Of a DNA stretch of 30,132 nucleotides, positions 2,746 through 27,266 are shown in pieces. Position 1 is the stretch's first letter. Each line of letters begins with the position of its first letter. The translations under genes and the position numbers were made by a program. The DNA comes from Halanaerobiales bacterium. Its GTDB lineage: Bacteria; Bacillota; Halanaerobiia; Halanaerobiales; M55B127. The stretch lies in NCBI GenBank assembly GCA_021736965.1, contig JAIPEV010000001.1:1-30132 (forward strand), in the 5' to 3' direction. The notes under the pieces were generated by a model. The model ran no database searches and was not told the origin of the DNA. It saw only the letters and a program-made list of their open reading frames with translations.

Positions 2746-2762
2746 AGGTAAACTATTAATAA

Positions 2763-2806: not shown

Positions 2807-2825
2807 AAACTTAAAGGATTTGATT

Positions 2826-3005: not shown

Positions 3006-3006
3006 A

Positions 3007-10542: not shown

Positions 10543-10917
10543 ATGGATTATAAAAATGAGTTGATTCAAAAGATAAAAAAAATCAATAAAGATGAAAGTT
10601 TAAATAAAGAACTAAATAAAGAATTAGAAAAACTAAAAACTGGAAAGGATATGGAGGAAACTATATATAGATTTAGTAAATTACTTAATAAATCACCTAA
10701 TGCTTTAGCAGTGGTTCTAATTCAGATAATAAAGTTAACTATATCAAATCAAAATAAAAATGATTTAATAGAAGATTTTTCTGAATTTGATAAGCAGACT
10801 TTAAGTATTATAGTTTTACTTTTTATATATGGAACTTTCCTCTTAAAGGATACTGATTTAGATTCTTTTAAAGTATTACAAAAAAGTATTGATTTTAACA
10901 ATGGAGCTATTAGTTGA
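10543..10917 (+). CDS. hypothetical protein
   Basis: AAAAGGG RBS favours ATG 10543 (track start 10504); its stop overlaps the primase start. Confidence 0.7.
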   Translation: MDYKNELIQKIKKINKDESLNKELNKELEKLKTGKDMEETIYRFSKLLNKSPNALAVVLIQIIKLTISNQNKNDLIEDFSEFDKQTLSIIVLLFIYGTFLLKDTDLDSFKVLQKSIDFNNGAIS

Positions 10918-12503
10918 AACAAGAGACAATCCAAGAAATAAAAGATACGGTTAATATAGTAGATATTATTTCTGAATTTGTAGATTTAAAGCCTTCTGGA
11001 AGGAATTATAAGGGCTATTGCCCTGTACATAATGAAAGTGAGCCTTCCTTTACTGTAAGTCCTGATAAAGGTATTTGTAAATGTTTTGGTTGTGGATTTT
11101 CTGCTGATTCTATTGGCTTTTTAATGGAAATAGAAAATTTAAGCTATATTGATAGTTTAAAATATATTGCTGATTTTTATCAAATAGAATATGAAGAAAA
11201 TGAAGAATATTTTAAGCTATATAAAATTAATCAAAAAGTAGTAAATTATTTTCATGACCATTTATTACAAGCTCCAAAACTAATTAAGTATCTAAAAGAC
11301 AGGGGCTTATCTATTGAAATTATCAAAGAATTTAAATTAGGATATGCCCCTAAAAATGATTATTTATCTGAATTAAATATAGATAAAAAAGAAGCTAATG
11401 ATTTAGGTTTACTTTATGAGGATAGGCCCCGGTTTTATAATCGAATTATGTTTCCTATTTTCAATTCTAAGGGCAAACCAATTGGTTTTAATAGTAGACG
11501 TCTACCAAATAAAGAAAATGGTGCTAAATACCTAAATATATCAAATACTAAAATCTATAATAAAAGTAAATCTTTATATAATTTGTTTAGAGCAAAAAAG
11601 AATATTAAAAGAGAAGATTCTGCTTGCGTTGTTGAGGGCAATATGGACGTTATTAAGCTGTATTCATTAGGCATTAAAACAGTTGTAGGAACAAGCGGAA
11701 CTGCTATAACAAAAAAGCAGGGTAAGATTTTAACTCGATATACAGACACTGTTTTCTTATTATTAGATTCTGATGAAGCTGGTAGAGCAGCAACAATAAA
11801 AGCTGGATTTACTTTTATATCTTTGAATTTACATATTAAAGTTATGGAATTGCCTGAAGGCAAAGACCCCGATGATTTTTTTACTAGTAAAAACCAATTT
11901 ATAAATTATCAAAAAAATAAAAGTATTGATTTTATGAAATACTTTTTTTCAAAGCAAAGAATGAAAAACTTACAAGATAAGCAAGCGGTAATTAAAGAAT
12001 TAAAGCAAAGATTTAAAAATAATAATATTCAGAATGAATTAATTTTAAATGAGATTAGTGAACAATTAGGAATAAGTAAACAATCCTTACAGAATGAATT
12101 AATTGTTAATTCTAGTAAACCTAGTTTAGATGTTAATTATCGATATAAAATAGAGATGACTATTATTAAGTATGCAATTGAAAATTTAAAAAAGAGAAAA
12201 TTTGTATTTAATAAAATGAAACCTAAAATGTTTAGGATAAAAATAGCTAGAAAAATATTAAAAAATCTTCATGAATATAAAGGGGGGGATTTTTATATTT
12301 TTCTGGATGGAAATGTTGATAAAAAGCATATTAAATTTTTAAAAAGGAATACGTCTTGGGAATTTGAACAATGTATAAGAGTATTAAAAGAAGATTTTAC
12401 TAATAGAATGATTGAATTTTTACAAAAAAAATTATTAAAAGAAACAAATTCAGAGGAAAAAAAGAAACTTTTACAAAAAATTGTAAAATTAAAAAAGAAA
12501 TAG
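10914..12503 (+). CDS. dnaG: DNA primase, bacterial DnaG type
   Basis: CHC2 zinc finger (CPVHNESEPSF..CFGCG), RIMFPI, KYLN, TOPRIM motifs VVEGNMDV and LDSDEAG, LPEGKDPD, plus a helical C-terminal domain. Confidence 0.97.
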   Translation: MKQETIQEIKDTVNIVDIISEFVDLKPSGRNYKGYCPVHNESEPSFTVSPDKGICKCFGCGFSADSIGFLMEIENLSYIDSLKYIADFYQIEYEENEEYFKLYKINQKVVNYFHDHLLQAPKLIKYLKDRGLSIEIIKEFKLGYAPKNDYLSELNIDKKEANDLGLLYEDRPRFYNRIMFPIFNSKGKPIGFNSRRLPNKENGAKYLNISNTKIYNKSKSLYNLFRAKKNIKREDSACVVEGNMDVIKLYSLGIKTVVGTSGTAITKKQGKILTRYTDTVFLLLDSDEAGRAATIKAGFTFISLNLHIKVMELPEGKDPDDFFTSKNQFINYQKNKSIDFMKYFFSKQRMKNLQDKQAVIKELKQRFKNNNIQNELILNEISEQLGISKQSLQNELIVNSSKPSLDVNYRYKIEMTIIKYAIENLKKRKFVFNKMKPKMFRIKIARKILKNLHEYKGGDFYIFLDGNVDKKHIKFLKRNTSWEFEQCIRVLKEDFTNRMIEFLQKKLLKETNSEEKKKLLQKIVKLKKK

Positions 12504-12504
12504 C

Positions 12505-12533
12505 TTGACTTTCTCAAATATAATTATTAAATT
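12505..12533 (+). promoter_or_regulatory. promoter P6 (AGCTTGACTTTYTCA class)
   Basis: TTGACT 12505-12510, 17 nt, TAAATT 12528-12533. Confidence 0.8.
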
Positions 12534-12557
12534 GTTTTTTATAAAAAGGAGTAAAAA

Positions 12558-12740
12558 ATGGATTTTAATATTATTGCTAGAGCATTAGTTTTAACGAGTA
12601 TGGGCTTATTTGCATTTTTAAGTGGAATTGATTTTTTATTGTTACTGTTTAAAAGTCCTTATGCTTGTCATTTTTCTACAATTAGCCACAGAATAAGTTT
12701 TATTTTTACTGTAATAATATTAACGTATTTATTAACATAA
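12558..12740 (+). CDS. small membrane protein
   Basis: AAAGGAG RBS; two hydrophobic stretches. Confidence 0.7.
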   Translation: MDFNIIARALVLTSMGLFAFLSGIDFLLLLFKSPYACHFSTISHRISFIFTVIILTYLLT

Positions 12741-12755
12741 AAAGGAGAGTGAATT

Positions 12756-13124
12756 ATGAGTGATTTTACTAAAGAACAAATTATTAAGTTTGACAAATTA
12801 GCATATGAGTATAAGTTAACCCAAAAGCTTAAATCTCAGTTTAAGAAAGACCAGAAGAAGAAAAAGAAAGAAATATTGGAAGCTATGGAACACGATTACG
12901 AAGTCGAAACAGAAAATGTTAAAATTAAACATAGTAGTTATTCAAGAGTTTTTTTTACAGAAAAAAAGATAAAGAAAGCTTTTTCAGATGTTCTCAGCGA
13001 AGATGAAATTGATGCTTTACTTGAACAAGTTGAAGGAACTCTTATTGACAAGTTATCTGTTTCTATTAAGGACACTAAACTAAATAGGAGTATTGCCAAT
13101 CAAGTCGATGAAGCCTCTCTATAA
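12756..13124 (+). CDS. hypothetical protein, coiled-coil N-terminus
   Basis: AAAGGAG RBS, 122 aa. Confidence 0.8.
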   Translation: MSDFTKEQIIKFDKLAYEYKLTQKLKSQFKKDQKKKKKEILEAMEHDYEVETENVKIKHSSYSRVFFTEKKIKKAFSDVLSEDEIDALLEQVEGTLIDKLSVSIKDTKLNRSIANQVDEASL

Positions 13125-13205
13125 TGTTACAAGCTATAGAGACTATAATTTTTATTTTTATTTTGATAAAAGAAGTAGGAAGATTATTTCAGAAAGGAGA
13201 AATTC

Positions 13206-14114
13206 GTGAAAAAGAAGAAGATTATGGTATCCCAAAATTTCTTCCATAAAATAGTTAGTTTAAAATCAGATATTGCTGAGATTATTTCTTTTAAAATTAT
13301 TGATTTATTCTCTCAAACAGGAAAGATGGTTTCTGTTAAAAATCTTGTTGAGAATATGAAAGGTTTATCAAAGATACAGATATATAATACTTTAGAATAT
13401 ATGGAAGGCCAGATTGATTTTGGCCTTCCTGACGATACTATTGATTGTTTGCCTTTACAGGGAGAGATAAAATCAATAATTAAAGAATATAGAAACTTGG
13501 GAACAAATAAGAAAGTTTCTAAAAAGAAAAAAAGTAAAAGAAAAAAAAGAGCTGAAAAGATAAATAAAGAAATACTTAATCCTTGGTATAGCTTTTTAAG
13601 AAAACATGGATATAAAAAAATTATTACTCAAAGCTACAGAAATTTTTGTTTTGGAATGATAAATAAGGCTATAAAAGAATATGATTTTACTTATAAACAA
13701 TTGCTGAAAATACTCAAATTTGGCTTTAGAAACGATTTTTTAAAAGATAAGGGTATTAACACTAATATTAAATCTATTCTATTCAGCGGGGCTAATATAC
13801 CCCAGAAATACCTTAAAAAGAAACAAAGCAAGTATAAAATTAGAACACATAACGGTATGCCTGCTAATTCTAAAAAGTTTGGTTATTTTGAAAGGAAAAA
13901 TAATAAATTTATCTTTAAGCCTCCAAAAAATAAAAAGACTATACATTACCAAGTTAAAAAAGAAACAAAAAATAGATTAGAAGGCAATTCTAAAAGAGAA
14001 ACCTTTGATAATCTTTTTAAAGATGGTAGTTTAAAGAAAAAGTTTCGGTGGCTTTTAGGGGAAACAGGTGAAAATAATGAATTTGTATATGGAGTTAATC
14101 ATGAACAAAATTAA
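13206..14114 (+). CDS. basic protein with putative winged HTH; candidate replication initiator/organizer
   Basis: GTG start behind GAAAGGAG; SVKNLVENMKGLSKIQIYNTLEYME is HTH-like; Lys-rich linker; located between dnaG and dnaB. Confidence 0.55.
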   Translation: MKKKKIMVSQNFFHKIVSLKSDIAEIISFKIIDLFSQTGKMVSVKNLVENMKGLSKIQIYNTLEYMEGQIDFGLPDDTIDCLPLQGEIKSIIKEYRNLGTNKKVSKKKKSKRKKRAEKINKEILNPWYSFLRKHGYKKIITQSYRNFCFGMINKAIKEYDFTYKQLLKILKFGFRNDFLKDKGINTNIKSILFSGANIPQKYLKKKQSKYKIRTHNGMPANSKKFGYFERKNNKFIFKPPKNKKTIHYQVKKETKNRLEGNSKRETFDNLFKDGSLKKKFRWLLGETGENNEFVYGVNHEQN

Positions 14115-14388
14115 ACAATGGTATAAAAAATTCAAGTATACAATAAGGGGTGCTTTTGGTATTTTTTTAATCTTGACTTCTCAGTTTATTTTATCTAGCA
14201 CAACCCAAGAAATAATCCAAGCAATTTCTATTGTTTTATATATCGATGGTTTGCTAATACTTTTTTCATTATCAAATAAGCTAGATAAAATAAAAAAGTC
14301 TAATTCACTTAAAATTAAAGATGTACAAAAAATTAATAATGATACTTTTAATATAATTGTTAAAAAAAAGGAAAAGAAAAATGAATGA
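14101..14388 (+). CDS. membrane protein (2 TM), probable paralog of 3007-3369
   Basis: GGAG RBS favours ATG 14101; KY....FGI.LIL.S.F.L is shared with 3007-3369. Confidence 0.75.
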   Translation: MNKIKQWYKKFKYTIRGAFGIFLILTSQFILSSTTQEIIQAISIVLYIDGLLILFSLSNKLDKIKKSNSLKIKDVQKINNDTFNIIVKKKEKKNE

Positions 14389-14812
14389 TAATATTTTAGA
14401 AGTAACAACACGTTTGCAAGCAGGAAAAGTAGCTGATTCTGGATATTTTTATCCTAAAGATGTTTTAATTGATGCTATGGATAAATTTAAACAGAAAGTT
14501 AAAAGTACTAAAGTATTTGGATATTTTGATGACCAATACTATATATCTCCAAATGAAAGGAATAAAGAGGAAAGGGCTTTTCGTATACTGGATGTAAACA
14601 AAACAAAAGATGATAGGTTTAAGCTTAAGATAAAACCACTTGATAATAAGAATGGTAATAAAGTTAAGGAACTAGTTTATAATAAAGAACATGTCAGCAA
14701 CGTACACTGTATTGGAGATGTAGAAGATTATACAATTAAAAATATTTATACAATTGAAACCGTTGATATTAAAAAAGATGATAGCAAGCCGTTAAAAAAG
14801 AAAGATAATTAA
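14381..14812 (+). CDS. T4 gp21-like prohead protease homolog, apparently inactive
   Basis: LQA...YPKDVLIDA..., then G, K.LD...G..VK.L and IG..VD patterns align by eye with gp21-type proteases; the catalytic His and Ser motifs are replaced. Confidence 0.55.
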   Translation: MNDNILEVTTRLQAGKVADSGYFYPKDVLIDAMDKFKQKVKSTKVFGYFDDQYYISPNERNKEERAFRILDVNKTKDDRFKLKIKPLDNKNGNKVKELVYNKEHVSNVHCIGDVEDYTIKNIYTIETVDIKKDDSKPLKKKDN

Positions 14813-14824
14813 TTCAAAAAAAGC

Positions 14825-14853
14825 TTGACTTTTTCAAAATAATATATTAAGTT
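14825..14853 (+). promoter_or_regulatory. promoter P7
   Basis: AGC-TTGACT-TTTTCA, 17-nt spacer, TAAGTT 14848-14853. Confidence 0.8.
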
Positions 14854-14888
14854 GCTATTGATAATTGAAATTTAAAAGGATAAGAAAT

Positions 14889-15089
14889 ATGCCTTACGAA
14901 TCTATATATGATTGTCCTGTTTGTTCTTATAAAGGAATACCTCATTATGAAGATTGTGGATATGGATATACTACTTATGGATCCGTTACCACTAAACATG
15001 AACAATATATGCCTGTATGCCCTGAATGTAAAAGTGATTTAAATGATGAAGATAAAACAGGCGAAAAAGAATTTCTAGACCCTTCTTAA
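14889..15089 (+). CDS. small zinc-ribbon protein
   Basis: CPVC...CPEC; AAAGGA RBS favours ATG 14889. Confidence 0.75.
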   Translation: MPYESIYDCPVCSYKGIPHYEDCGYGYTTYGSVTTKHEQYMPVCPECKSDLNDEDKTGEKEFLDPS

Positions 15090-15100
15090 AAAGGAAAATT

Positions 15101-15442
15101 ATGGTAAGAATTAAAAAGAAATTTAATGTTAATAAAATTAAAATAGGACAAATTTATAAAGTTGAGACAGAATATAGGGAAAAATTTTTAGGAATAGTGG
15201 CAGAAATTAAACCAGAAATTTCTTATTTTATTTGTCGAGTTAATATAGATACTATTAATAAAAAAGTGGATAATGTTAAATTGTTTGCTTTAGCTTCTCA
15301 GCATATAACTAATTTAGAATATATAGGTAAAATTCCTAATCTTATTAATTCTAGTATTTTAAAAAACAATTTAGAAAATTTAGAAACCTATATGGATTAT
15401 AAAATTTGTTATGAGTTATCAAAAATAATTGAAACTAATTAA
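15101..15442 (+). CDS. hypothetical protein, SH3-like N-terminus
   Basis: AAAGGA RBS; IKIGQIYKV...FLGIV pattern. Confidence 0.75.
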   Translation: MVRIKKKFNVNKIKIGQIYKVETEYREKFLGIVAEIKPEISYFICRVNIDTINKKVDNVKLFALASQHITNLEYIGKIPNLINSSILKNNLENLETYMDYKICYELSKIIETN

Positions 15443-15452
15443 AGGAGAAAGC

Positions 15453-15812
15453 ATGGATTATACTAAGTATTTAATTGATGACATGTCTTCAGAAAAGCGT
15501 CTTAATATGTGGGTAAAGAAAATCAAGAAACATTGGAAATTAAATTGTCAACAATTTCCTTATTTATTGACTGTTTTTGATAAGCTATATCAGCAATCAC
15601 ACGATATTGTTGAAACAGATGAGTATATAGTTTATCAGCTTTTGCATAAATTGTCTTTATCAGAATTAAAGGACTTAACGGACAATTTAGCTTTAATGGA
15701 AACTTTACTAAATGTTAATATCTGTACAGTACACTCTCATTGGGCCAATCCTGTCGATGGAGCTATTATTGAGATAAGACTTAAAAAATTATATGGAGAT
15801 GTAAATGAATAA
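15453..15812 (+). CDS. hypothetical protein
   Basis: AAAGGAG RBS favours ATG 15453. Confidence 0.75.
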   Translation: MDYTKYLIDDMSSEKRLNMWVKKIKKHWKLNCQQFPYLLTVFDKLYQQSHDIVETDEYIVYQLLHKLSLSELKDLTDNLALMETLLNVNICTVHSHWANPVDGAIIEIRLKKLYGDVNE

Positions 15813-15831
15813 AAGTAGAAAGTAAATTATA

Positions 15832-16558: not shown

Positions 16559-16571
16559 TTTGAGAAAAAGC

Positions 16572-16600
16572 TTGACTTTTTCATTTATATTTTGTATATT
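16572..16600 (+). promoter_or_regulatory. promoter P8
   Basis: AGC-TTGACT-TTTTCATTTA, 17-nt spacer, TATATT 16595-16600. Confidence 0.8.
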
Positions 16601-16624
16601 TAGTCTACATTTTAAAATAAAGAG

Positions 16625-17110
16625 GTGTATGTGGACATTTCAGAGTTACTTAAAAATTCTAAGATTCCTTATAAAGAAAAGAATTTAAATAAAAAATATT
16701 TAAAAAAGAGTAAAATATCTCAATCCTCTTTAATTTTAGCTGACAGCTCTATATACAGGAGTATAGGTAAAGAGATTGCTAGTCGAATAGTTTATAATTA
16801 TTTAAAAGAAAATAAACCTAGATACAATCCTGTTTATCTTTATAAGCCTGTATTTACTGTTTATCTTAATGAAAATAGAAAGATAAAAAATTTATGGAGA
16901 AAAACAGATGCTTTAATTTTTGATGGGGTAGATGAATATAGTAATAGATGGGATTTTCAAAATATTACTAATTTAATTACATCTAGAATTTATAATGATA
17001 AATTGACTATTATGATAGCTACTTCTGATATTGAAAATAGAATTAAGGAATATAATGGAGATAGTTTTTTATCTCTATTAACAAGTCTGCCTAAAATTGA
17101 GGTTCAATAA
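16625..17110 (+). CDS. DnaC/IstB-like helicase-loader homolog with degenerate Walker motifs
   Basis: SKIP N-terminal motif, remnant P-loop SLIL...SIGKEIA, Walker B-like ALIFDGVD, and W....NLI.SR.....TIMIAT box; upstream of dnaB. The start may be GTG 16631. Confidence 0.65.
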   Translation: MYVDISELLKNSKIPYKEKNLNKKYLKKSKISQSSLILADSSIYRSIGKEIASRIVYNYLKENKPRYNPVYLYKPVFTVYLNENRKIKNLWRKTDALIFDGVDEYSNRWDFQNITNLITSRIYNDKLTIMIATSDIENRIKEYNGDSFLSLLTSLPKIEVQ

Positions 17111-17113
17111 TTA

Positions 17114-17353
17114 ATGAATATAAAAATTGTTTCCTTCTATAAAAATAATATTGGATATGTATTAAAATTAATCTTAATAACTAATAAATATATTTATAGA
17201 GAAAAGTTTTGGGGCGATTACTCTTACTTATCGACAATTAAACACCTTATTCAAAAAACAGATAACACTAAAGCTAAATTTAAATTTTATAATTCTTTGA
17301 AAAAGCATTGTTCTACTTTTGAAAGTATTAAAGAGAAAAGAAAAAATAAATAG
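17114..17353 (+). CDS. hypothetical protein
   Basis: GAGG RBS, 79 aa. Confidence 0.65.
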   Translation: MNIKIVSFYKNNIGYVLKLILITNKYIYREKFWGDYSYLSTIKHLIQKTDNTKAKFKFYNSLKKHCSTFESIKEKRKNK

Positions 17354-17400
17354 TTTATATTTTTTTAATTGCAGATAACTTCTTAAATTGAGAGGATTTT

Positions 17401-18729
17401 ATGGCGGAAAATACTCCCTATAATCGGGAAGCTGAAGAATATTTATTAGGAACTACTTTATATAATTATAAAAAAGTTAAAGCCTTTACAGATAAATTAG
17501 CCCCTAAATTGTTTTATATTAAACAGAATAGATTTATAGCAAAGTCTATTTTAGAGTTACATAGGGAAGGACATAAAGTTGATATTATTACTGTACAGGA
17601 AAATTTAGAATCTAAAAATTTATTAGAAGATGCTGGCGGGTACGAAAAATTAGCTAATTTAAGAAATGAATCCTTTGCTATTGAAAATTTTTCTGAACAT
17701 TTAAGTATTTTAAAAGATAATTATGAACGTAGAAAACTAATTAACTTATTTTCCGAAACTACAAATGAACTCAGTAATAAAAAAGATTTAGATTCAGTTA
17801 AAAATAAAGTATCAACAAGCTTATTTAATTTAAACAGCAAACAAACAGCTGTATCTAAAGGCGGATTTGCTAAGTTTGAAGAAAACAGTATTAAAGAAAA
17901 AATAAATAGAATAAAAGTTGGTAGTGGTATTAGTATATTAGACCACGATTTAGCTAAAGGATTTGCTCCTCAGAATATTTCAATAATAACTGCTAGACCC
18001 CGTATGGGAAAATCAGCTGTAAAACAAAATATTATTTTAAATCAAGCTATGCGAGGAATTGGTATTCTTGATTTATCTTTAGAAATGACAGCTGAAGAAG
18101 AACTAGATAGAATAATATCAATGGATTCTGGAATACCTTTATACGATATTTTAAATATTAGAGATTGGGTAAAAATCAAAGATAGAAAGTTTGTTACTCA
18201 GTATCCTGAAAAATTAAGATTAATTAAAGAGACTGCTCAAAAATTGGATAATTTAGACTTATATATTGAAGATGGTATGATGTCTTTAAGCGAAGCTAGA
18301 GCTACTATGATACGCTATAAAGAGCTATATGATGTTGAAATTGTATATGTTGATTTAGTAGATAGAATTAAAGAAGTCTATAGAGCTTCTAGTAACAAAG
18401 CCCAAAAAATAACAAGTGTAGTCGGCTCCTTTGCTGAAATAGCTAGTAATTATAATATGCACGTATGTTGTTTAGTACAGCAAAGAAGAAGGAATAAGAA
18501 GAAAGAGAAGCCTTCTTTAGAAGGGTTAAAGGGTAGTGGAAGTTATGAAGAATTTGCTGATTTAATTCTGGGTGTATATCGAGAGTTTGTAGATGATGAT
18601 GAATTATTAGAAGATGATGTAATTGATATATATTTAAGGAAGCAAAGAATGGGCAAGACGGGCAAATATACTTTAAGCTGGGAAAGTGAAACTTTAAAGA
18701 TATTAGAACAGGATGGTATTTATGAGTAA
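17401..18729 (+). CDS. dnaB: replicative DNA helicase, DnaB family
   Basis: N-terminal EAEEYLLG domain, Walker A ARPRMGKS, SLEM, YVD, LKGSGSYEEFADLIL, KQRMG. Confidence 0.96.
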   Translation: MAENTPYNREAEEYLLGTTLYNYKKVKAFTDKLAPKLFYIKQNRFIAKSILELHREGHKVDIITVQENLESKNLLEDAGGYEKLANLRNESFAIENFSEHLSILKDNYERRKLINLFSETTNELSNKKDLDSVKNKVSTSLFNLNSKQTAVSKGGFAKFEENSIKEKINRIKVGSGISILDHDLAKGFAPQNISIITARPRMGKSAVKQNIILNQAMRGIGILDLSLEMTAEEELDRIISMDSGIPLYDILNIRDWVKIKDRKFVTQYPEKLRLIKETAQKLDNLDLYIEDGMMSLSEARATMIRYKELYDVEIVYVDLVDRIKEVYRASSNKAQKITSVVGSFAEIASNYNMHVCCLVQQRRRNKKKEKPSLEGLKGSGSYEEFADLILGVYREFVDDDELLEDDVIDIYLRKQRMGKTGKYTLSWESETLKILEQDGIYE

Positions 18730-20272
18730 TTTTAAATTAGAAATAAATAATGCGTATACATATGTTTTAGAAGGGGATACTAGCCTTATTAAAAAACAAT
18801 GTCAGCTAAAATCTCAAAGAATTTATAAATGGTCATTCTTATTAAAGCATAGAGCTGCTGATAAATGGCATATAAATAACTATAATTTAGATGAGTATAG
18901 AGCATTGTATGGAAAATGTAAAAAACATGATAAGCAGTATGCTATCCCTATGAAAAAATATATGAAAAATAAAAATAATATTGTCAATGTTCCTGTTTTT
19001 AAAGAAGATTGGATTAGTTTTTATGATGAAGATGAAGATAAGTTTCCTACTGGTTGGGTATTTTCTAAAGTTATAAAGCCTTTACAAGATAATTCGTATA
19101 CTTTTAATATTATCGATAATAGAACTGAACTAGAAACAAGTGATACATTTCAAGAAATACCATTACCTTATGAATTAAGATATTATCAAAAAGAAGCTAT
19201 TAATTTAGCTATTGATAATAATAGATTTATTTGTCATTTAGCTACAGGCGGCGGTAAAACATTAATAGGTATGGGGATTATTAAAGAAACAGGAGCTAGC
19301 TCTTTATTTATAGTACCCTCTTTATCTTTATTAAATCAAACTTATAGAAATTTTGTTGAAGTTTTTGGTAAAAAATATATAGGAAAAATAGGAGATGGTC
19401 ATGAAAAAATAAAAAAAGTTACAATTTCAACAGTACAAAGTTTGTGGAGTAAGCGTACAAAAGACAATATCCAAGATTTATTGTCTAATGTTGGTGTTAT
19501 GATACTAGATGAAGCCCACCATGTAAATACTTCTAAACAAAATACTAATACTTGGTTTCAGATAGCAATGCAATGTGATGCTAAAACTCGTATAGGATTG
19601 ACAGCAACACCGGGAAAAGATAATGATAAGTCTTTTGAGATGTTAAAAGCTGCTACTGGTAAAATTGCAATTTCTAAATCAATAAAGCAATTAATTGAAG
19701 AAGGATTTTTATGTCCTGCTGATATTTTTATGATTCCAATTAAACAAAAACAATATAGTCACTGGAAAACTGCTGTAAAACAGGGTATTCACTTAAATGA
19801 AAAAAGAAATCGAGTTATTGCAAAATATGCACAATCTTGTGCGGATAGGGGTGAAAATGTAGTAATTACTGTTAATAGAATTAAAACACAGGCTACCGAA
19901 TTGATAGAGCTGCTGCCTGATGCTTACACTGCTTTTGGAGACACTCCCTCAGAAGCTCGAAAACAAATATTTAAAGAGTTAGAAGATACTAGGGGTAATA
20001 TTCTTATTAGTTCTGTAATTGGAGAGGGTTGGGACTGTCCCAGTGCTTCTGTATTAATTCTTGCAGAAGGAGGAAAGGGCGGAGTAAATGCTAGAAATAA
20101 AATACAAAAAATAGGGAGAGTTTTAAGAAAAGAAAAAGACAAAGATAAGGCACTTATAATTGACTTCTTTGATAAAGATGGGAAAACTTTAGAAAAACAT
20201 TCACGATTTAGGTATAAACATTATAAAGAAAAGAATGCTTTTAATATTTATAGAGCTAAGCCAAGTGTGTAA
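18722..20272 (+). CDS. superfamily 2 helicase (UvsW/XPB/ResIII-like)
   Basis: LRYYQKEA, ATGGGKT, DEAHH, LTATP, EGWDCP, QKIGRVLR. Start 18722 or 18713. Confidence 0.93.
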   Translation: MSNFKLEINNAYTYVLEGDTSLIKKQCQLKSQRIYKWSFLLKHRAADKWHINNYNLDEYRALYGKCKKHDKQYAIPMKKYMKNKNNIVNVPVFKEDWISFYDEDEDKFPTGWVFSKVIKPLQDNSYTFNIIDNRTELETSDTFQEIPLPYELRYYQKEAINLAIDNNRFICHLATGGGKTLIGMGIIKETGASSLFIVPSLSLLNQTYRNFVEVFGKKYIGKIGDGHEKIKKVTISTVQSLWSKRTKDNIQDLLSNVGVMILDEAHHVNTSKQNTNTWFQIAMQCDAKTRIGLTATPGKDNDKSFEMLKAATGKIAISKSIKQLIEEGFLCPADIFMIPIKQKQYSHWKTAVKQGIHLNEKRNRVIAKYAQSCADRGENVVITVNRIKTQATELIELLPDAYTAFGDTPSEARKQIFKELEDTRGNILISSVIGEGWDCPSASVLILAEGGKGGVNARNKIQKIGRVLRKEKDKDKALIIDFFDKDGKTLEKHSRFRYKHYKEKNAFNIYRAKPSV

Positions 20273-20341
20273 ATCATACCCATATATTGTGGATAAGGAC
20301 AAAAAATAGAAATATTTACACAAATTAATTTAAGAAATAGC

Positions 20342-20370
20342 TTGACTTTTTCATTTAAATTTATTATATT
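20342..20370 (+). promoter_or_regulatory. promoter P9
   Basis: AGC-TTGACT-TTTTCATTTA, 17-nt spacer, TATATT 20365-20370. Confidence 0.8.
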
Positions 20371-20413
20371 ATGGTGTAATTTGAAAAATGAGAAAAACTC
20401 ATAGTAGAAATAA

Positions 20414-20914
20414 ATGCAGATTTTGGAGGCAAATTTGAGTATTTTTAAGGACAAACATACAAAATTTTTTGGCAAGCCAATTACTATAAAATGGTATAAG
20501 CGTATTTGGTGGAAAATAAAGGCACCTTTTGAAACTATGTGGTGGACACGGTTTGGATATTATACAGTATTGCATTGGTACCAAAGAGCGAAATATATCT
20601 ATTCCTATCGGGATGTGTTTAGTATTGTTGATTGGTTTAGGGATACTTTGCCGGAAATGTTATCCGATTTAGAAAACTGCTATATGTATAAACACGGTAT
20701 TTACAAATTTAATTTAGAAAACAATAATTTAACAGACAACGAATATTTAAGTATGAAATTTAGTTTAACAGAAAGAATTATTAGCGGTATTGAAGCACAT
20801 AAAAAATGGGAATGTTTGGAGTATACAGATACTAAAGAAGAAAAAATTATGCGTTATAAATACGAAGATGCTATGGATTTATTTACAAAATATTTAGGTA
20901 TATTTTGGGATTAA
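20414..20914 (+). CDS. conserved phage hypothetical protein (WYQR...YS..D / LPEML..L / LF.KY....WD)
   Basis: The start could be TTG 20435 behind GGAGG. Confidence 0.8.
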   Translation: MQILEANLSIFKDKHTKFFGKPITIKWYKRIWWKIKAPFETMWWTRFGYYTVLHWYQRAKYIYSYRDVFSIVDWFRDTLPEMLSDLENCYMYKHGIYKFNLENNNLTDNEYLSMKFSLTERIISGIEAHKKWECLEYTDTKEEKIMRYKYEDAMDLFTKYLGIFWD

Positions 20915-20930
20915 TAAAAAGGAGATTATA

Positions 20931-21389
20931 ATGAGTAAAAAAATTAATTTTGGTAGAAATGTTAGTGATACTACAAGAAAAGGCAAATTAACCAGCATAA
21001 AAGAAAAATTAGTAGAAAGTAGTAATTCTTTAAATGATTTACTTTCAGATAAACGATATAAGCCTATTTCTACAAAGGAAAGATTAAAATTAAAAGAATG
21101 GAAGAATGAATTAGGTGCTATTTATTTGCAAATAAATAGTTTTGAATTTTCAGAAAAAAAATATCCTAATTCAGTAAGAAATACTGTACTTCTTGTACAA
21201 AAAGTTTTTGGAGAAGATGCTACAAATTTTAAATTTTATGATTATAGTATTAGATTTGATTTAGATAATAGAAGATATAGAGTATCCACTAGAGGAAGCT
21301 TAATGGTAGAAGAAGTCTTAAATGGAGTTTTAGCAGGCAATCATAATGCTCGATTAGTTGAACAATTACTTCAACAACAAAAAGATTAG
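20931..21389 (+). CDS. hypothetical protein
   Basis: AAAGGAG RBS, 152 aa. Confidence 0.8.
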   Translation: MSKKINFGRNVSDTTRKGKLTSIKEKLVESSNSLNDLLSDKRYKPISTKERLKLKEWKNELGAIYLQINSFEFSEKKYPNSVRNTVLLVQKVFGEDATNFKFYDYSIRFDLDNRRYRVSTRGSLMVEEVLNGVLAGNHNARLVEQLLQQQKD

Positions 21390-21398
21390 GAGGTTATA

Positions 21399-21716
21399 AT
21401 GGCTCACGTTTCATTACATTTTAAAAAAGAAGAACAATATTTACATTTGTTACTAAAAGCAATTGCTTTCTATTATAAAAAAAGAGGAAATAAAGAAAAA
21501 GGCAATATTAGTTCATTTATTAAAAAACAAATAAGTATGCCTTTAAAAAGAGAGTATCAAGAGATTAAGAAAAAATCTGGAGTTGATGTTATTAAGCTCT
21601 ATGAAGAGTATGAACAGAAAAAACAAGGTTTAGAAAGAAACATTAAAAGTAAAACAAGGTATCCAACAGGATATGATATGATTCAAAGTAAATTAGAAGA
21701 ATTTGATGACGAATAA
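21399..21716 (+). CDS. hypothetical protein, possible ribbon-helix-helix DNA-binding protein
   Basis: AGGAGG RBS; N-terminal strand HVSLHF followed by two helices (NISSFIKKQI); C-terminal QSKLEEF. Confidence 0.7.
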   Translation: MAHVSLHFKKEEQYLHLLLKAIAFYYKKRGNKEKGNISSFIKKQISMPLKREYQEIKKKSGVDVIKLYEEYEQKKQGLERNIKSKTRYPTGYDMIQSKLEEFDDE

Positions 21717-21730
21717 AAAAAGGGAGTAAT

Positions 21731-22978
21731 ATGCAACCACTTTCATTAAAGTATCGGCCTCAAAATTTCAATGATTTTGTAGGAAATGAAGCTAATGCTA
21801 AAATTATTAAAAAAGCTATTCAAAAAAATAAGCTATCTGTTAGTTTATTATTTTCTGGCAGGAGAGGTACAGGAAAAACTAGTTTAGCTAGAGTAGTAGC
21901 TAAATCATTAAATTGTCCTAATCAGAAGGATGGAGAGCCTTGCAATGAGTGTCAAACATGCAAAGCTATTGATAGAAGTTCTTTTATTGATGTCGTTGAA
22001 ATTGACGGGGCTAGTAAATCTAAAGTAAAGCATATGCGACAGCTAAGCAAAGAAACTATTTTTGCTCCTTCTACAGGCAAAACTAAAATTTATATTATTG
22101 ATGAATGTCATAATATAAATAAAAAAGCTTGGAATGCTTTACTAAAGCCTATTGAGGAAGCTAAAGATAATATTAGATTTATATTTTGTACAACAGAACA
22201 CCACAGTGTTCCGGGAACAATAAAAAGTAGATTAAACTTGTATAGATTTAAAGAAATCTCAAAACAAAATATTTACAAAAGATTAAAGTATATCAGTAAG
22301 CAAGAAGACTTTAATATTAATGATGATTCTTTAAAAGTCATTGCTTCTAAATCTAGAAATTCTATGAGAGATGCTATTAATTTATTAGAACAATATATGG
22401 TAGCTGAAGGAAATTCTGATTTACAAAAACAACTCCTAAGAGAGATTAGCAGTAAAGAAATTAAACAGTTACTAGTATCTATTATGAAAGGTAAGGTCAA
22501 TAAAGCAATAAAGCTAATTAAAGGTGTTCATACCCCTATTGATGAAATTATTAACGAAATAATTGATTTTATTACAATTAACGATAATGGTTTTAAGTTC
22601 ATTTCTAAATTTGATAATAAACTAATAATAGCTTTCTTGGATTTACTTTTGGATTTTAAATCAGAATTAAATTACATAGATAACGTTATGGTAGATTTGC
22701 AAGCTCGTTTACTTCAATTTAAATTACAATATGTAAAAAGTATTTCTCTTAACTTTAAACAAGCTATTAATAAACTTAAAAATAAACTTAATCCAGATAC
22801 TGTTTATAATCAAGATGATTTTTATGTATTTGTACGAAACGGAGAAAGGCTTTATATTGTAAAAGATGAAAAATCTGTTTTAAAAGGAAAATATTTATTA
22901 TTTCCTTCCGATGTTATTAAAGTGCTTAAAGGAAAGTCCTTAAAAGGCCTAATTAAATATAAAACTAAAAGAGGTTAA
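21731..22978 (+). CDS. dnaX: clamp loader ATPase, DNA polymerase III gamma/tau (DnaX) family
   Basis: LKYRPQNF.DFVG, GRRGTGKT, zinc module C..C..C..C, EIDGAS, IIDECH, NALLK..EE, FIFCTT, SR(L), MRDA. Confidence 0.96.
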   Translation: MQPLSLKYRPQNFNDFVGNEANAKIIKKAIQKNKLSVSLLFSGRRGTGKTSLARVVAKSLNCPNQKDGEPCNECQTCKAIDRSSFIDVVEIDGASKSKVKHMRQLSKETIFAPSTGKTKIYIIDECHNINKKAWNALLKPIEEAKDNIRFIFCTTEHHSVPGTIKSRLNLYRFKEISKQNIYKRLKYISKQEDFNINDDSLKVIASKSRNSMRDAINLLEQYMVAEGNSDLQKQLLREISSKEIKQLLVSIMKGKVNKAIKLIKGVHTPIDEIINEIIDFITINDNGFKFISKFDNKLIIAFLDLLLDFKSELNYIDNVMVDLQARLLQFKLQYVKSISLNFKQAINKLKNKLNPDTVYNQDDFYVFVRNGERLYIVKDEKSVLKGKYLLFPSDVIKVLKGKSLKGLIKYKTKRG

Positions 22979-22980
22979 TA

Positions 22981-24099
22981 ATGAAATTTACTGTAGATAA
23001 AGATGTATTTCAATCTAATATTCGATTTTTAAATAAAATTACTAAGAATTTTGATTTTAATAATATTGCTGATAGTTTGCTATTTAAATTAAAAGATGAT
23101 AAATTAATTATTCAAGCTATGAATGATTTATCAGCAGCTAAGACAACTATTCCTATGAATAAAGAATTTTTAAATACTGAATTTCTTGTAGATGCTAATA
23201 AATTTTATAAAGTTATTAGATTTGCATCACAAGATACTTTAATGTTTGAATTGGATGCTGAAGATACTCAAAAAGGAGAAGGCCATTTAATATTTAGAGG
23301 AAAGTCTACTGTTAAATTTCCTTTAAAACCTTTATTTCAATATCCTACTTATAATAAAGAAAATCTTTATTATACTCCTGTCGATAAAGAATTTATAGAA
23401 GATTTGGATATTGCTAAGGAGTTTATTCATAAAAAAGCAACTAATTATTTATCTGGGATTAATATTAATTCTAATACAATTATATCTTCAAATAAGATTG
23501 TTGTTATGTTGATTAAACATAAGTATAATTTTGATAAATACCATTTTGATAGTCTGACAATACCTAGTGATACTACTAGTATTATTAAAGCTTTGGATGA
23601 TCCAGAAATTAGTTTTAGTTCTTCTTTTTATGTTAAAGGTAAAATAAAAGACTGTAAAGTAGAAACCTATCATAATGTTATTAATGATGATTATCCTGCT
23701 GATTTGATTTTACAGAAAACACATAAATGGGGCAATGAAAAGGATAAACATAAAGTTGTTTTTCGTCTCGATGATTTAAAAGTAATTAATAAAAAAATTA
23801 ATTCTGTTAATAGTAAAGATGATATGCCTGTAAAATTAGAAGTTAAAGAAGGCAAAATAACTTTTAAATATAGAGAAAATAAATTTACTTTTCAACAAAC
23901 TATAGAAGCTGAAACAGAAACTCCCTTAGTAACTAAAATGAGATGTGCTCGTATTGATAATCTTGTATCTCTAGCTAGTTTTTATGGACAGAATAAAATT
24001 TCATTATTTTTTAAAAAAGAAGATACTTCAGAACATTTTATATTTAAAGACAAATTTTTGTATGTTGCTGAATTGCAAGAGTTAACTATAAAAGAATAG
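22981..24099 (+). CDS. dnaN: DNA sliding clamp, divergent beta subunit (DnaN) family
   Basis: 372 aa. MKF.V....F N-terminus, lVdA.kf..vi, fP...YP, LsGi, iP and dYP patterns typical of the three-domain beta clamp; directly after dnaX. Confidence 0.8.
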   Translation: MKFTVDKDVFQSNIRFLNKITKNFDFNNIADSLLFKLKDDKLIIQAMNDLSAAKTTIPMNKEFLNTEFLVDANKFYKVIRFASQDTLMFELDAEDTQKGEGHLIFRGKSTVKFPLKPLFQYPTYNKENLYYTPVDKEFIEDLDIAKEFIHKKATNYLSGININSNTIISSNKIVVMLIKHKYNFDKYHFDSLTIPSDTTSIIKALDDPEISFSSSFYVKGKIKDCKVETYHNVINDDYPADLILQKTHKWGNEKDKHKVVFRLDDLKVINKKINSVNSKDDMPVKLEVKEGKITFKYRENKFTFQQTIEAETETPLVTKMRCARIDNLVSLASFYGQNKISLFFKKEDTSEHFIFKDKFLYVAELQELTIKE

Positions 24100-24108
24100 G
24101 AGAAAAAT

Positions 24109-24645
24109 ATGATAAAACTTACAGGACAAATCGGGAGAGAAGAATTTAATAAACGATTAAAGAGTGCTAGACCAAAAGTATTAAAATCTTTAGCTGAGGA
24201 CTTTACTAAAGTTTTAAGAATACCTGTGAACAAAGACCAAAAAAATAAAAATTTAAGAAAAACTTTAGAAGGTTTATATTTTAGAGATAGAAGTTTACTA
24301 AATGAAGATTCAATTGATAAAGATAAGGTAAATGGTAAAGATTACTTTGATGTTAGATGCCTTATTAATTGCCCGTTCACAACTAAAAATTCATTTTATG
24401 ATACTTATATGGCAATGATATATCCTTTTGAATTAAATAAAAATATTAAAAGAAGTGATATTTATAAAAGAGTAGAAGAATATAAAAAATATCATGATCA
24501 AAAATTCAGTAAAAAAGAAATTTACCGTATAATACAATGGGCGGGTCAACATAAAGTTGGCAAAAAATCTATTGTAGAAACTACAAAGCCAACTATGAAA
24601 TTCAGAAAAATAAAAGAATGGGATAATTTTGAGGCTAAATTGTGA
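24109..24645 (+). CDS. hypothetical protein between clamp and polymerase
   Basis: AGGAG RBS, 178 aa. Confidence 0.8.
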   Translation: MIKLTGQIGREEFNKRLKSARPKVLKSLAEDFTKVLRIPVNKDQKNKNLRKTLEGLYFRDRSLLNEDSIDKDKVNGKDYFDVRCLINCPFTTKNSFYDTYMAMIYPFELNKNIKRSDIYKRVEEYKKYHDQKFSKKEIYRIIQWAGQHKVGKKSIVETTKPTMKFRKIKEWDNFEAKL

Positions 24646-24857
24646 TAGATAGAGTTCCTAAAATCATTAAAGTAAAGGATAAGCCTTATCAGCTTATTCA
24701 TAAAAAAAGATTTTCTTTATGGAAGGATGATAAGGCTATTGATTTTTTAAAAAAGAAATATAATGCTAATATTGTTTTAAGAAAAAAGGGGTATATTTAC
24801 TTATTAAGAAAAATTGAAAATGCTAAATATAAAACAATAAAGGAAAACAATGGATAA
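24642..24857 (+). CDS. small basic hypothetical protein
   Basis: GTGA overlap, GAGG RBS; coupled to polA. Confidence 0.7.
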   Translation: MIDRVPKIIKVKDKPYQLIHKKRFSLWKDDKAIDFLKKKYNANIVLRKKGYIYLLRKIENAKYKTIKENNG

Positions 24858-27228
24858 ATGTCAAAAATGTTCTCTAGGTAATAAAGAAAAAAGATTTGAC
24901 TATTATTATAATGAAAACTCTAAATATTTAATACTATCAGATTTTCCTGAAACTATTGAGATAAGATCGGGTATTCCAAAGATTTTACAAGGACAATCTT
25001 CTTATCTTTTTAAAAAAATGATAAAAAAGGCAAACTTACAAATAAAAGACTTTAGCTATGCAACATTAACTCAATGCTATCCCACTACAAAAAATATAAC
25101 AGATACAAATACTAAAGAATCTATTAATACTTGCGTACAAGCAAACTTATATAGATTTATTAAAAAAGTAAATCCTGAAATTATCTTTATTACTAAAGAT
25201 GTTTGTGCTACATACTTTTTTAATCTTAGTTCTCTTAATTCGCTAGGAAACAGCCTGAAGTACTGGGAGGGCTTTAAAGTATTAGCTTTAGAGTTACCCT
25301 CTACTACTAGAAGAAAGAAATATTCTCGTATTAATAGCGTTGCTAATTTAAAATATGCTAAATCTTTAATAGAAGAAGATAATTCATTAAATCATTTAGA
25401 TTTAAATACTGTATCTAATACTAAAGAATTTTATAAATCTTTAGAAAAAATAAAAAATGGAAATGCTTTTAATAGGTATGGGGTAGATGTCGAAACCACA
25501 GGCTTAAATCCTTATAAAGGCGATAAAATATTTGGAATTAGTTTTGCTTTCTCAGATACAGAAGCTTATTATTTTCCTATTAGACGCCACTCTATTTTAG
25601 GCAATGGATATGAATTGTACTGGCCAAAAAAAGAAATGGAAAAGCTTAGAAAATTTGTAGAAGATAGAAATAATAAATTTTCATTTCATTTTTCTAATTT
25701 TGATGTTGAATTTATCCATATTGATTTAGGTTGGGATATAAAAGTTACAAATGATAGCTTAAATTTAGCGTATACTCTTAATGAAAATAGAAAAAAATCA
25801 TTGGAATACCTTACTAATAGATTTTTCTCTGATTTAGTTGGATTTAAAGAAAAATCTAAAAAAGAAATTAAACAAACAAAAGATTTTGATAAAATTCCAT
25901 TAAATATTTTAGCAGAAAGATGTAATATTGACAGTATTGCTTGTTTTAGATTAACTAATAAATTTGTACGAGAGTTATTTAATAATAATCAAGAATTGCT
26001 TAAATACTATAATAAGTTTAGAAAGCCTTTATTAAATATTCTTATTAATCTTCAAGAAAATGGATTTAAAATTGATTTAAATAGGCTAGAAGAGCTTGAT
26101 AAAAAATATTCTAGTAAGTTAAATAGATTAAAAACTAAAATGTGGAAAGCTGCTAACTGTAGATTTAATCCTAAATCTAATCCAGAATTAAGAGATGTTC
26201 TATACAATAAGATTAATTTAACTCCTCCAAAAGGTTTTATAACCGAAAAAACAAAAAAACCTCAATTAAATAAAGCAGCTTTTAAAGAGCTCAAAAAAGA
26301 ATATGGATTGCTTTTAATAGATTATATTTTAGATTACAAAGAATTGCATAAATTAAAATCAACTTATATAGATGGATTTAGAAAAGTTGTAGTGAACACT
26401 AGGATTCATAGTAAATTTAAATCTGCCGTTGCTAAAACAGGAAGGCTAGCTTCTAGTAATCCTAATGCTCAAAATATAGCAGGAAACAAAGACATTAAGG
26501 GCTTAATAATAGCAGAGGAAGGGTATAATATTATCGAAATGGATTATAAGCAAGCAGAGGCCAGATTATTCGCTTACTTATCTGGTAGTGACAAATTGGC
26601 AGAAGCTTGTTATTCTTCTGATGTGTACCAAAAAATAGCTGCTTTAAGTACTGGAGTAGATTTTGAAGAAGTAACACAAGAAGTCCGAGATCATTATAAA
26701 ATGGTTGTTTTAGCTTTACTATATGGTATGGGAGATGCCTCATTAGCAAAGATTATTAATAAAACAAAAAGACAGGCAGAATCTTTAAGAAATCAATTTT
26801 TTGATATGTTTCCTGCTGTTGTAAATTGGAAACAAAAAATATATAAAGAGCTAAAAGAGAATGGATATGTTACTAGCATATACGGCAGAAGAAGAAGAAT
26901 ACCTACTATATACAGCAATAAAGAAGAAGATAGAGCTGAAGCTAAACGCCAAGCTGTTAATTTTAAAGTTCAATCTCCTACTTTTGACTATGTTGGAGTA
27001 GGATTACAAAGAACTTATAAAAACATTCAACCTTTTGATGCAAAGATTATACTTACTGTCCATGATAGTATTTTAGTTGAAGTCAAAAAAGAACAAACAG
27101 AAGATATACTTCCAATAATGAAAAAATCAATGATAGACCCTGTACCTCCAATTGACAAAGATGCTCATATGGGAGTAGATGCTGAAGTGGGGAAAAGGTG
27201 GGGATTTTTTGAAACAGTAGAAATATAA
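24850..27228 (+). CDS. polA: family A DNA polymerase with N-terminal family-4 UDG-like domain and 3'-5' exonuclease
   Basis: Exo I DVETTG, Exo II NFD, TGRLASSNPNAQNI, motif A DYKQAEAR, motif B R..YK...L...YG, motif C VHDS; N-terminal C4/C7/C76/C95. Confidence 0.96.
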   Translation: MDKCQKCSLGNKEKRFDYYYNENSKYLILSDFPETIEIRSGIPKILQGQSSYLFKKMIKKANLQIKDFSYATLTQCYPTTKNITDTNTKESINTCVQANLYRFIKKVNPEIIFITKDVCATYFFNLSSLNSLGNSLKYWEGFKVLALELPSTTRRKKYSRINSVANLKYAKSLIEEDNSLNHLDLNTVSNTKEFYKSLEKIKNGNAFNRYGVDVETTGLNPYKGDKIFGISFAFSDTEAYYFPIRRHSILGNGYELYWPKKEMEKLRKFVEDRNNKFSFHFSNFDVEFIHIDLGWDIKVTNDSLNLAYTLNENRKKSLEYLTNRFFSDLVGFKEKSKKEIKQTKDFDKIPLNILAERCNIDSIACFRLTNKFVRELFNNNQELLKYYNKFRKPLLNILINLQENGFKIDLNRLEELDKKYSSKLNRLKTKMWKAANCRFNPKSNPELRDVLYNKINLTPPKGFITEKTKKPQLNKAAFKELKKEYGLLLIDYILDYKELHKLKSTYIDGFRKVVVNTRIHSKFKSAVAKTGRLASSNPNAQNIAGNKDIKGLIIAEEGYNIIEMDYKQAEARLFAYLSGSDKLAEACYSSDVYQKIAALSTGVDFEEVTQEVRDHYKMVVLALLYGMGDASLAKIINKTKRQAESLRNQFFDMFPAVVNWKQKIYKELKENGYVTSIYGRRRRIPTIYSNKEEDRAEAKRQAVNFKVQSPTFDYVGVGLQRTYKNIQPFDAKIILTVHDSILVEVKKEQTEDILPIMKKSMIDPVPPIDKDAHMGVDAEVGKRWGFFETVEI

Positions 27229-27237
27229 AAAAATAGC

Positions 27238-27266
27238 TTGACTTTTTCATTTAGTTGTTTTAACTT
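27238..27266 (+). promoter_or_regulatory. promoter P10
   Basis: AGC-TTGACT-TTTTCATTTA, 17-nt spacer, TAACTT 27261-27266. Confidence 0.8.

Follow-up and report, generated by a model that had tools for sequence, protein, structure and literature searches.

The window analysed here, i.e. the whole 30,132-bp stretch, is the entire contig C139, the longest contig of a metagenome-assembled genome (MAG). It holds 44 or more open reading frames (ORFs), every one of them on the + strand, and includes a co-directional set of replication genes encoding DnaG, DnaB, DnaX, DnaN and PolA. This set was picked out by a first-pass annotation, and each of its members is confirmed by Pfam (Table 1). The subject of this report is the replisome that these genes would form, and in particular the cassette in which a bacterial-type clamp-loader ATPase (DnaX) and a beta-type sliding clamp (DnaN) are followed by a small conserved protein of 178 amino acids (aa), a 71-aa ORF and a family A DNA polymerase (PolA).

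Table 1. Positions of the replication genes, promoter-like repeats and neighbouring features in the window.
Feature	Position	Strand	Basis or remark
DnaG-type primase, 529 aa	10914..12503	+	Pfam Zn_ribbon_DnaG 1.1e-31, DNAG_N 1.3e-27, Toprim_2 4e-19
Promoter-like repeat (CTTGACTTTCTCA..., -35/-10 type)	12495..12533	+	family D2
302-aa basic protein	13206..14114	+	weak lead: phage replication-organizer/helix-turn-helix (HTH) type
Promoter-like repeat at head of loader-DnaB-SF2 cassette	16562..16600	+	D2/D3; TTGACT-17-TATATT
161-aa P-loop-less AAA+ core, DnaA/DnaC/DnaI/IstB clade; candidate helicase loader	16625..17110	+	structure comparison
DnaB-type replicative helicase, 442 aa	17401..18729	+	Pfam DnaB_C 1.1e-36, DnaB 1.4e-19
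Superfamily 2 (SF2; ResIII/DEAD) helicase, 519 aa	18713..20272	+	Pfam ResIII 3.9e-30, DEAD, Helicase_C; phrog_16 DNA helicase 2.3e-74
Promoter-like repeat at head of DnaX-DnaN-PolA cassette	20332..20370	+	D2/D3; TTGACT-17-TATATT
Three small ORFs (166, 152, 105 aa), cassette head	20414..21716	+	no Pfam/PDB match
DnaX, gamma-type, 415 aa, lineage-specific C-terminal extension	21731..22978	+	Pfam DNA_pol3_delta2 7.7e-38; lid domain also recognised
DnaN, 372 aa, very divergent homolog of the beta sliding clamp	22981..24099	+	PF00712 1.1e-8
Conserved 178-aa protein; candidate accessory protein for the clamp, its loader or PolA	24109..24645	+	AlphaFold2 (AF2) predicted local distance difference test (pLDDT) 94.4
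71-aa basic ORF, isoelectric point (pI) 10.2	24642..24857	+	ORF listing
PolA (family A), 792 aa, with UDG-like N-domain, 3'-5' exonuclease and polymerase domains	24850..27228	+	Pfam
Promoter-like repeat opening next cassette (80-aa ORF, RtcB)	27228..27266	+	D1/D2/D3
RtcB RNA ligase	27553-28746	+	Pfam 4.7e-113; behind own promoter repeat

Contig C139 is read as a piece of an uncultured phage genome that spans its early and replication regions and was co-binned with the probable host. The MAG (1.5 Mb, 63% complete) is of a low-GC Bacillota, and GC content is 25.9% in C139 versus ~30% in the remaining bin. Extended promoter and leader motifs, searched on all contigs of the bin, are absent outside C139, and no sister phage contig was found. 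Host copies of DnaG (on C47, 36% identical to the window DnaG) and DnaB (on C56, 28%) are present in the MAG. The confinement of the motifs and the presence of these host copies are the grounds for reading C139 as phage DNA, and the replication set of the window, being additional to these copies, is taken to be phage-specific. Most C139 ORFs match neither Pfam nor PHROG, and no structural genes are found among them in these scans; the phage genome is therefore incomplete. A single tRNA-Tyr is encoded, which is the sole match in an Rfam scan of the window. The phage is probably virulent, with a host of low-GC Bacillota type.

Near-identical promoter-like repeats occur in nine copies, three at 28, 1232 and 4864 and six, the members of repeat family D2, at 8863, 12495, 14815, 16562, 20332 and 27228. 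Each is made up of an A-tract, the sequence CTTGAC(T/A)TTTTTCA and a -10-like element, and the repeats bound gene cassettes in the early as well as the replication regions. Between the copies at 20332 and 27228 neither a promoter of the repeat family nor a terminator-like site occurs, and the eight ORFs of 20414-27228 are spaced by -8 to +16 nucleotides (nt), with dnaN starting 2 nt past the dnaX stop. This tight spacing, together with the lack of an internal promoter or terminator, argues for co-transcription of DnaX, DnaN and PolA with the 178-aa gene and the 71-aa ORF. The three ORFs at the head of the cassette, which begin at 20414, 20931 and 21399, gave no match in Pfam and PDB searches; only the third (21399-21716) has a homolog (5049-5435) in L006, a 21.6-kb Joint Genome Institute (JGI) contig.

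DnaX matches phrog_5846 at 3.4e-68, and its residues 2-234 align to domains I-II of E. coli gamma (1njf) at 2.9e-48. The AAA+ module is ~40% identical to Bacillota-type DnaX and carries a Walker A motif (GRRGTGKT), a zinc module (C62/C71/C74/C77) and a DExx motif (IIDECH). In the sequence KSRL the SRC motif is replaced by SRL, the arginine being retained and the cysteine changed to leucine. The PDB search leaves residues 237-340 without a match; they align loosely with the collar of the DnaX (gp17) of Streptococcus phage Dp-1; unlike Dp-1 gp17, the window protein gives no hit to PF12169 (collar domain III). Tau domains IV-V are lacking, as judged by the absence of a tau C-terminal Pfam domain, and the protein is gamma-like. 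Past the collar there are ~70 further aa (residues ~340-415, 22750-22978), and this C-terminal extension, which appears beta-rich, is kept in L006 and absent from Dp-1 gp17. Placed like the extra domains of tau, it could join either the helicase or the polymerase to the loader.

The clamp changes much faster than the loader, DnaN being far less conserved than the AAA+ module of DnaX. The N-domain of DnaN scores 35.7 bits with PF00712 against a cut-off of 24.4, and phrog_947 matches at 4e-20 across residues 1-331. The single sequence gave no hit in a phmmer search of the PDB, and tblastn of 50,697 phage records likewise gave none; BLAST-level relatives are confined to its own clade, in which net charge runs from -6 to +5. 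A four-sequence DnaN profile (A4) matches 8dt6 (E 7.9e-8) and T. maritima beta (1vpk, E 8.4e-7, positions 1-327) in the PDB. By these alignments DnaN is a full-length homolog of the three-domain, ~370-aa beta subunit. Acidic charge has been used as a heuristic for ring clamps that need a loader (PMC3201878). For DnaN the pI comes to 8.4 in the window, 5.4 in L006 and 4.5 in Dp-1, with 8.7 and 6.5 for close relatives; composition bias confounds the test on these values, because the median pI of the window proteome is 9.0.

The polymerase encoded after the clamp is indeed PolA, a family A enzyme, as first annotated, but the 750 bp said to separate the two genes is coding, being occupied by the 178-aa gene and the 71-aa ORF. 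Pfam recognises DNA_pol_A (4.7e-85), DNA_pol_A_exo1 (1.1e-10) and UDG (2.9e-8) in PolA, and no 5'-3' exonuclease domain. Residues 412-785 are collinear with positions 3-380 of the DNA_pol_A profile (374 residues versus 378 positions). The clade of this enzyme is small, is found in metagenome assemblies only and shows 38-61% identity, and the exonuclease and polymerase catalytic residues are invariant across it (alignment A1). Within the UDG-like domain (24850-25370, same alignment) four cysteines are kept, and motifs A and B are altered in the window; an HP motif is kept in L006. P0007, a clade member of 601 aa, is without the UDG-like domain; thus, either the domain is dispensable in the clade or the P0007 record is truncated.

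The AF2 model of the 178-aa protein, one of high confidence, is helical in its N-terminal half and weakly winged-helix-like in its C-terminal half, and the best VIA-align matches are to winged-helix domains (Z<=4.4). No PDB sequence hit was obtained, Foldseek against PDB and BFVD returned nothing at E<=0.001, and the Atlas search gave a weak lead to PriCT-1 (0.90). The gp62 subunit of the T4 clamp loader is missing from the top Foldseek and VIA-align matches, lists of a kind that do not exclude a likeness. The family forms 15 clusters among 1.8 billion representatives, and it shares contigs with members of the PolA clade in five cases, including the inferred ones of PolA P0002, P0004 and P0005. 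The 71-aa ORF opens with a GTG that overlaps the stop codon of its 178-aa neighbour and closes with a TAA that overlaps the polA ATG. A 57-aa acidic ORF lies in the same position in L006 (9835-10008) and has no sequence similarity to it. The 71-aa ORF may serve translational coupling or encode a small accessory protein.

The order of these genes recurs in L006, with 38% identity between the two PolA proteins. The order in L006 is DnaC-like ORF, DnaB, sigma-like ORF, SF2 helicase, homolog of ORF 21399, 244-aa ORF, DnaX, DnaN, 104-aa ORF, 178-aa homolog, short overlapping ORF and PolA, so that DnaB-SF2-x-DnaX-DnaN-178aa-small ORF-PolA is common to both contigs. DnaN P0129 and PolA P0003 probably lie on one further contig. 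As to the survey of dnaX-dnaN-polA synteny suggested with the first-pass annotation, scans of IMG/VR with the single PolA, the single DnaN, the DnaN profile and a profile of the 178-aa subgroup gave no close relatives. Among 80 IMG/VR PolA loci at <=28% identity none has this DnaX or DnaN, and neither IMG/VR nor the cultured-phage collection contains the lineage. Two other features of L006 can be recorded. A sigma-70 region-2 protein (2637-3209) lies between DnaB and the SF2 helicase, with no counterpart there in the window, and RecA (16784-17791) and an SbcD-like phosphoesterase (18635-19675) are encoded downstream of PolA.

No delta or delta' family (for delta, PF06144 and PF21694) scores in any ORF of the window, in agreement with the first-pass annotation, or in any ORF of L006, and Dp-1 gp18 (delta'-like) and gp19 (delta-like) match no ORF of either contig at E<=1. 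The wider search for dnaE, holA and holB that had been called for can be answered in part from the 63%-complete MAG, in which PF06144 finds nothing and the sole match of PF13177 is the window DnaX. A dnaE gene was found on C48, with pfkA and pyk as neighbours, and PolC on C58, with proS, rimP, nusA, infB and pnp. Since dnaE-pfkA-pyk and proS-polC-rimP-nusA-infB-pnp are classical Bacillota chromosomal contexts, both polymerases are host genes and their assignment to the phage was rejected; this DnaE does not refute the first-pass proposal. No other replicative polymerase is encoded in the 30-kb contig or in L006.

Upstream of the DnaX cassette, the DnaB helicase has the Walker A sequence ARPRMGKS. 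The ORF straight after DnaB was considered as a DnaC-like loader and rejected, as it is an SF2 ResIII/DEAD helicase, which is kept in L006 (3509-5068). A DnaC-like loader had nevertheless been annotated in the module, and a DnaC/DnaI-like fold is found, in the 161-aa protein encoded 290 nt upstream of dnaB and behind the promoter repeat at 16562, but with its P-loop deleted. The AF2 model (pLDDT 72, residues 1-23 disordered) matches DnaA (2e-5), DnaC (3ec2, 3e-4) and DnaI (2w58, 5e-4) in Foldseek with probability 1.0, and VIA-align gives Z 14.5-13.2 to DnaA/DnaC/DnaI/IstB versus 9.8 to delta and 10.2 to RFC. There is no Walker A motif in the protein, and in the model strand 1 is joined to helix 1 by just two residues, the P-loop being, as modelled, essentially deleted. 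L006 too encodes a homolog upstream of DnaB (801-1301). As predicted from the model, the protein is DnaC-like in fold and no canonical member of the DnaC/DnaI loaders, with no functional Walker A and no N-terminal helicase-binding domain.

The combination of a family A polymerase with a bacterial-type clamp and loader ATPase has precedents. PolA together with polIII-beta and a lone polIII-gamma was described in phages Ma-LMM01 and RSL1 by Kazlauskas & Venclovas (2011, PMC3201878). In the same work, beta was suggested as a processivity factor of PolA, E. coli Pol I being stimulated by beta, the UDG-like domain of SPO1/T5-type PolA was proposed as an alternative processivity device, and the question was posed of whether the partners of the viral gamma are host subunits or a taxon-specific subunit resembling gp62 (PMC3201878). 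By the published description, Ma-LMM01 and RSL1 resemble the window in encoding a family A polymerase along with a beta homolog and one gamma-type ATPase whose motifs are intact, as well as in having no recognisable delta/delta' and a clamp that is not strongly acidic. They are complete genomes of >150 kb with cyanobacterium and Ralstonia hosts, whereas the window is a 30-kb fragment in a Bacillota-associated bin. The window differs further in the UDG-like N-domain of PolA, the tight operon with the 178-aa protein and the C-terminal extension of DnaX.

Streptococcus phage Dp-1 (NC_015274, 56.5 kb) encodes DnaN (gp10), DnaX (gp17), delta'-like gp18 and delta-like gp19, as well as DnaC-like gp66, DnaB, DnaG, an SF2 helicase, sigma factor gp69 and a proofreading PolA (gp71). 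Dp-1 is like the window in its Bacillota host, its DnaC-like-DnaB-DnaG set, SF2 helicase, DnaN and DnaX, and its proofreading PolA, which is its only polymerase; homology by phmmer is 2.8e-32 for DnaX and 2.7e-35 for PolA. With L006 it shares a sigma factor within the replication module. In contrast to the window and L006, Dp-1 has Pfam-recognisable delta'-like and delta-like genes beside DnaX. Its gp17 is without the zinc module and C-terminal extension, both present in the window DnaX, its PolA has no UDG-like domain, its DnaN is strongly acidic (pI 4.5 versus 8.4), and its genes are dispersed, whereas DnaX, DnaN and PolA of the window lie in one operon. DnaX, DnaN and PolA are also encoded by Nodularia phages.

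SPO1-type UDG-PolA enzymes are phage replicases. In these enzymes of the Herelleviridae (SPO1 gp31, Bacillus phage Nachito) a UDG-like domain, a 3'-5' exonuclease and a polymerase are fused as in the window, and such fusions are the best full-length cultured-phage matches to the window PolA, at 22-24% identity. The complete genome of Nachito has no DnaX-type or DnaN-type gene, and the closest IMG/VR UDG-PolA contig (53% complete) likewise has neither. The UDG-like domain is absent from the PolA of three clamp/loader-encoding phages checked (Dp-1, Nodularia, R5C). Five phage records in all were sampled for co-occurrence of UDG-like PolA with DnaN/DnaX. In these few known groups the fusion and the clamp/loader genes occur apart, and the clade of the window unites them.

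In phage T4 the loader is made up of four copies of one AAA+ subunit, gp44, and one small non-AAA+ lineage-specific subunit, gp62, of 187 aa. The window is like T4 in that loader, clamp and polymerase genes are clustered and that gp62 is near in size to the 178-aa protein. The clamp is a PCNA-like trimer in T4 and beta-type in the window, and the polymerase belongs to family B in T4 and to family A in the window. The analogy of the 178-aa protein to gp62 is positional, with no sequence or fold similarity detected.

The hybrid replisome is, then, already known at the genomic level, and the window is a new and very divergent lineage of the known PolA/beta/gamma arrangement. Possibly distinctive is the co-occurrence of a UDG-like PolA with a clamp, to which are added the 178-aa partner, the extension of DnaX and a DnaC-like protein without a P-loop, in a sample that is too small for this to be called new. 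To our knowledge, no PolA/beta/gamma phage replicase has been reconstituted so far.

The interpretation favoured here, with a probability of roughly 0.55, is that of a largely self-sufficient bacterial-style phage replisome in which PolA is the replicase and is tethered by a DnaX-loaded clamp. DnaG primase and DnaB helicase, with a degenerate and ATPase-dead DnaC/DnaI-like partner and the SF2 helicase, would act at the fork. The five genes from DnaX to PolA would be expressed from one promoter, and a DnaX-based loader would put the phage clamp on primed DNA. The clamp would then tether the proofreading PolA, as proposed for Ma-LMM01, RSL1 and Dp-1-like phages, a coupling that we infer from synteny, i.e. 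from membership of one operon and conserved adjacency. The composition of the loader may tentatively be drawn by analogy with T4 gp44/gp62, as DnaX oligomers with a lineage-specific non-AAA+ partner, which might be the 178-aa protein or the DnaX extension. The idea first proposed for this locus, of a PolA that depends on the clamp and is served by a loader either minimal or host-complemented, is thus consistent with gene content; it is not new, given PMC3201878 and Dp-1, and no conserved clamp motif is found in the polymerase.

Several observations weigh against the favoured interpretation. A clamp-binding motif of QxxLF type is not conserved in at least 3 of 7 PolA-clade members with any of four patterns, Pfam collinearity leaves PolA without a thumb insertion, and the strict clamp-binding pentapeptide occurs in no window ORF, replication proteins included. 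Any interface between PolA and clamp would therefore be non-canonical or pass through another protein. The clamp of the window is near-neutral to basic (pI 8.4), as opposed to typical acidic ring clamps, a property that varies within the clade. Neither delta nor delta' is present in the 30 + 21 kb of replication region of the window and L006, every characterised clamp loader that we know of needs a differentiated subunit, and nothing in the 178-aa protein detectably resembles delta, delta', gp62, chi or psi. Since the contig is part of a phage genome, other polymerase or loader subunits may lie elsewhere. We also know of no experiment on any phage of the PolA/beta/gamma type.

The incompleteness of the contig, which is a fragment without structural genes, leaves room for a classical gamma/delta/delta' loader as in Dp-1, with the delta and delta' genes either unsampled or too divergent to be seen among the orphan ORFs. 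Dp-1 shows that PolA phages can carry such genes (gp18, gp19), and the proteins of the window are extremely divergent, DnaN alone finding nothing in the PDB. Yet the three loader genes of Dp-1 are contiguous, while the neighbours of DnaX in the window and L006 are small ORFs without an AAA+ signature, and the failure of gp18 and gp19 to match any ORF of either contig at E<=1 points the same way. Complete genomes with a lone gamma also exist, namely Ma-LMM01 and RSL1 (PMC3201878). Such a loader is accordingly considered somewhat unlikely. Unlikely, and more so, is a truly minimal loader, in which DnaX with a lineage-specific non-AAA+ partner (the 178-aa protein or the DnaX extension) would replace delta/delta' and load a fast-evolving, non-acidic clamp, and PolA would be held in a non-canonical way, e.g. 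by its catalytically dead UDG-like domain or by the 178-aa protein as adaptor, and not by a QLxLF peptide.

The phage genes could alternatively lean on the host, whose delta/delta' would complete the loader, and/or the phage clamp and loader could serve the host PolC/DnaE, leaving PolA to gap filling or synthesis of the primer-removal type. The host does encode PolC and DnaE, PolA has no recognisable clamp-binding motif, and the level of identity of the DnaX AAA+ module to Bacillota-type DnaX suggests a host origin. However, the lack of tau domains IV-V and of a domain III Pfam hit, with a divergent collar, argues against binding of host delta/delta' or alpha, and the clamp is too divergent for host partners to be expected to have been kept. 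PolA, proofreading and without a 5'-3' exonuclease domain, has the make-up of a typical phage replicase, and phages encoding their own primase, helicase and polymerase normally use that polymerase (PMC4889955). Reliance on the host is for these reasons regarded as quite improbable. A clamp dedicated mainly to some other DNA transaction, such as late transcription or repair/ligation, with the processivity of PolA coming from its UDG-like domain, is rated very improbable. Late transcription in T4 is clamp-dependent, through gp45. That of phage Mu depends on the host clamp (PMC12867686). The UDG-like domain has itself been suggested as a processivity device (PMC3201878), Nachito has the UDG-PolA fusion without DnaX or DnaN, and a sigma factor lies in the replication modules of the relatives (L006 2637-3209, Dp-1 gp69). 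On the other side, the window cassette holds no sigma or co-activator gene, and DnaN lies upstream of PolA in the same operon in at least two related contigs (window and L006) and probably shares a contig with PolA in a third (P0129/P0003); processivity and other clamp roles are, moreover, not mutually exclusive.

Additional features surround the replication genes. The 302-aa protein matches nothing significantly in Pfam, PHROG or PDB, its sole Pfam row being GnsAB_toxin below cut-off (18.6 bits); an Atlas feature search leads to HTH_36/Phg_2220_C clusters (0.94-0.96), which is a lead only, and its C-terminus is conserved in L006 (2-343). The phage RtcB has a host counterpart at G000 C48 2427-3770, which is 30% identical to it. 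The presence of a phage RtcB along with the phage tRNA-Tyr suggests tRNA repair as a counter-defence. Two ORFs (4364-4864 and 29528-30130) resemble Lar-like (restriction alleviation) zinc-ribbon proteins, slightly under the Pfam cut-off.

In genomic terms, the locus is mainly another divergent example of a documented pattern. Its interest lies in the mechanistic questions raised in PMC3201878, i.e. how beta can be opened by a lone gamma in the absence of delta/delta', and how a polymerase of family A makes contact with it. For these questions the locus provides a candidate operon that is compact, with five genes in 5.5 kb and the conserved 178-aa partner among them, and directly testable. The presence of a UDG-like PolA domain alongside a clamp bears, in addition, on whether the two processivity devices are alternatives or partners.

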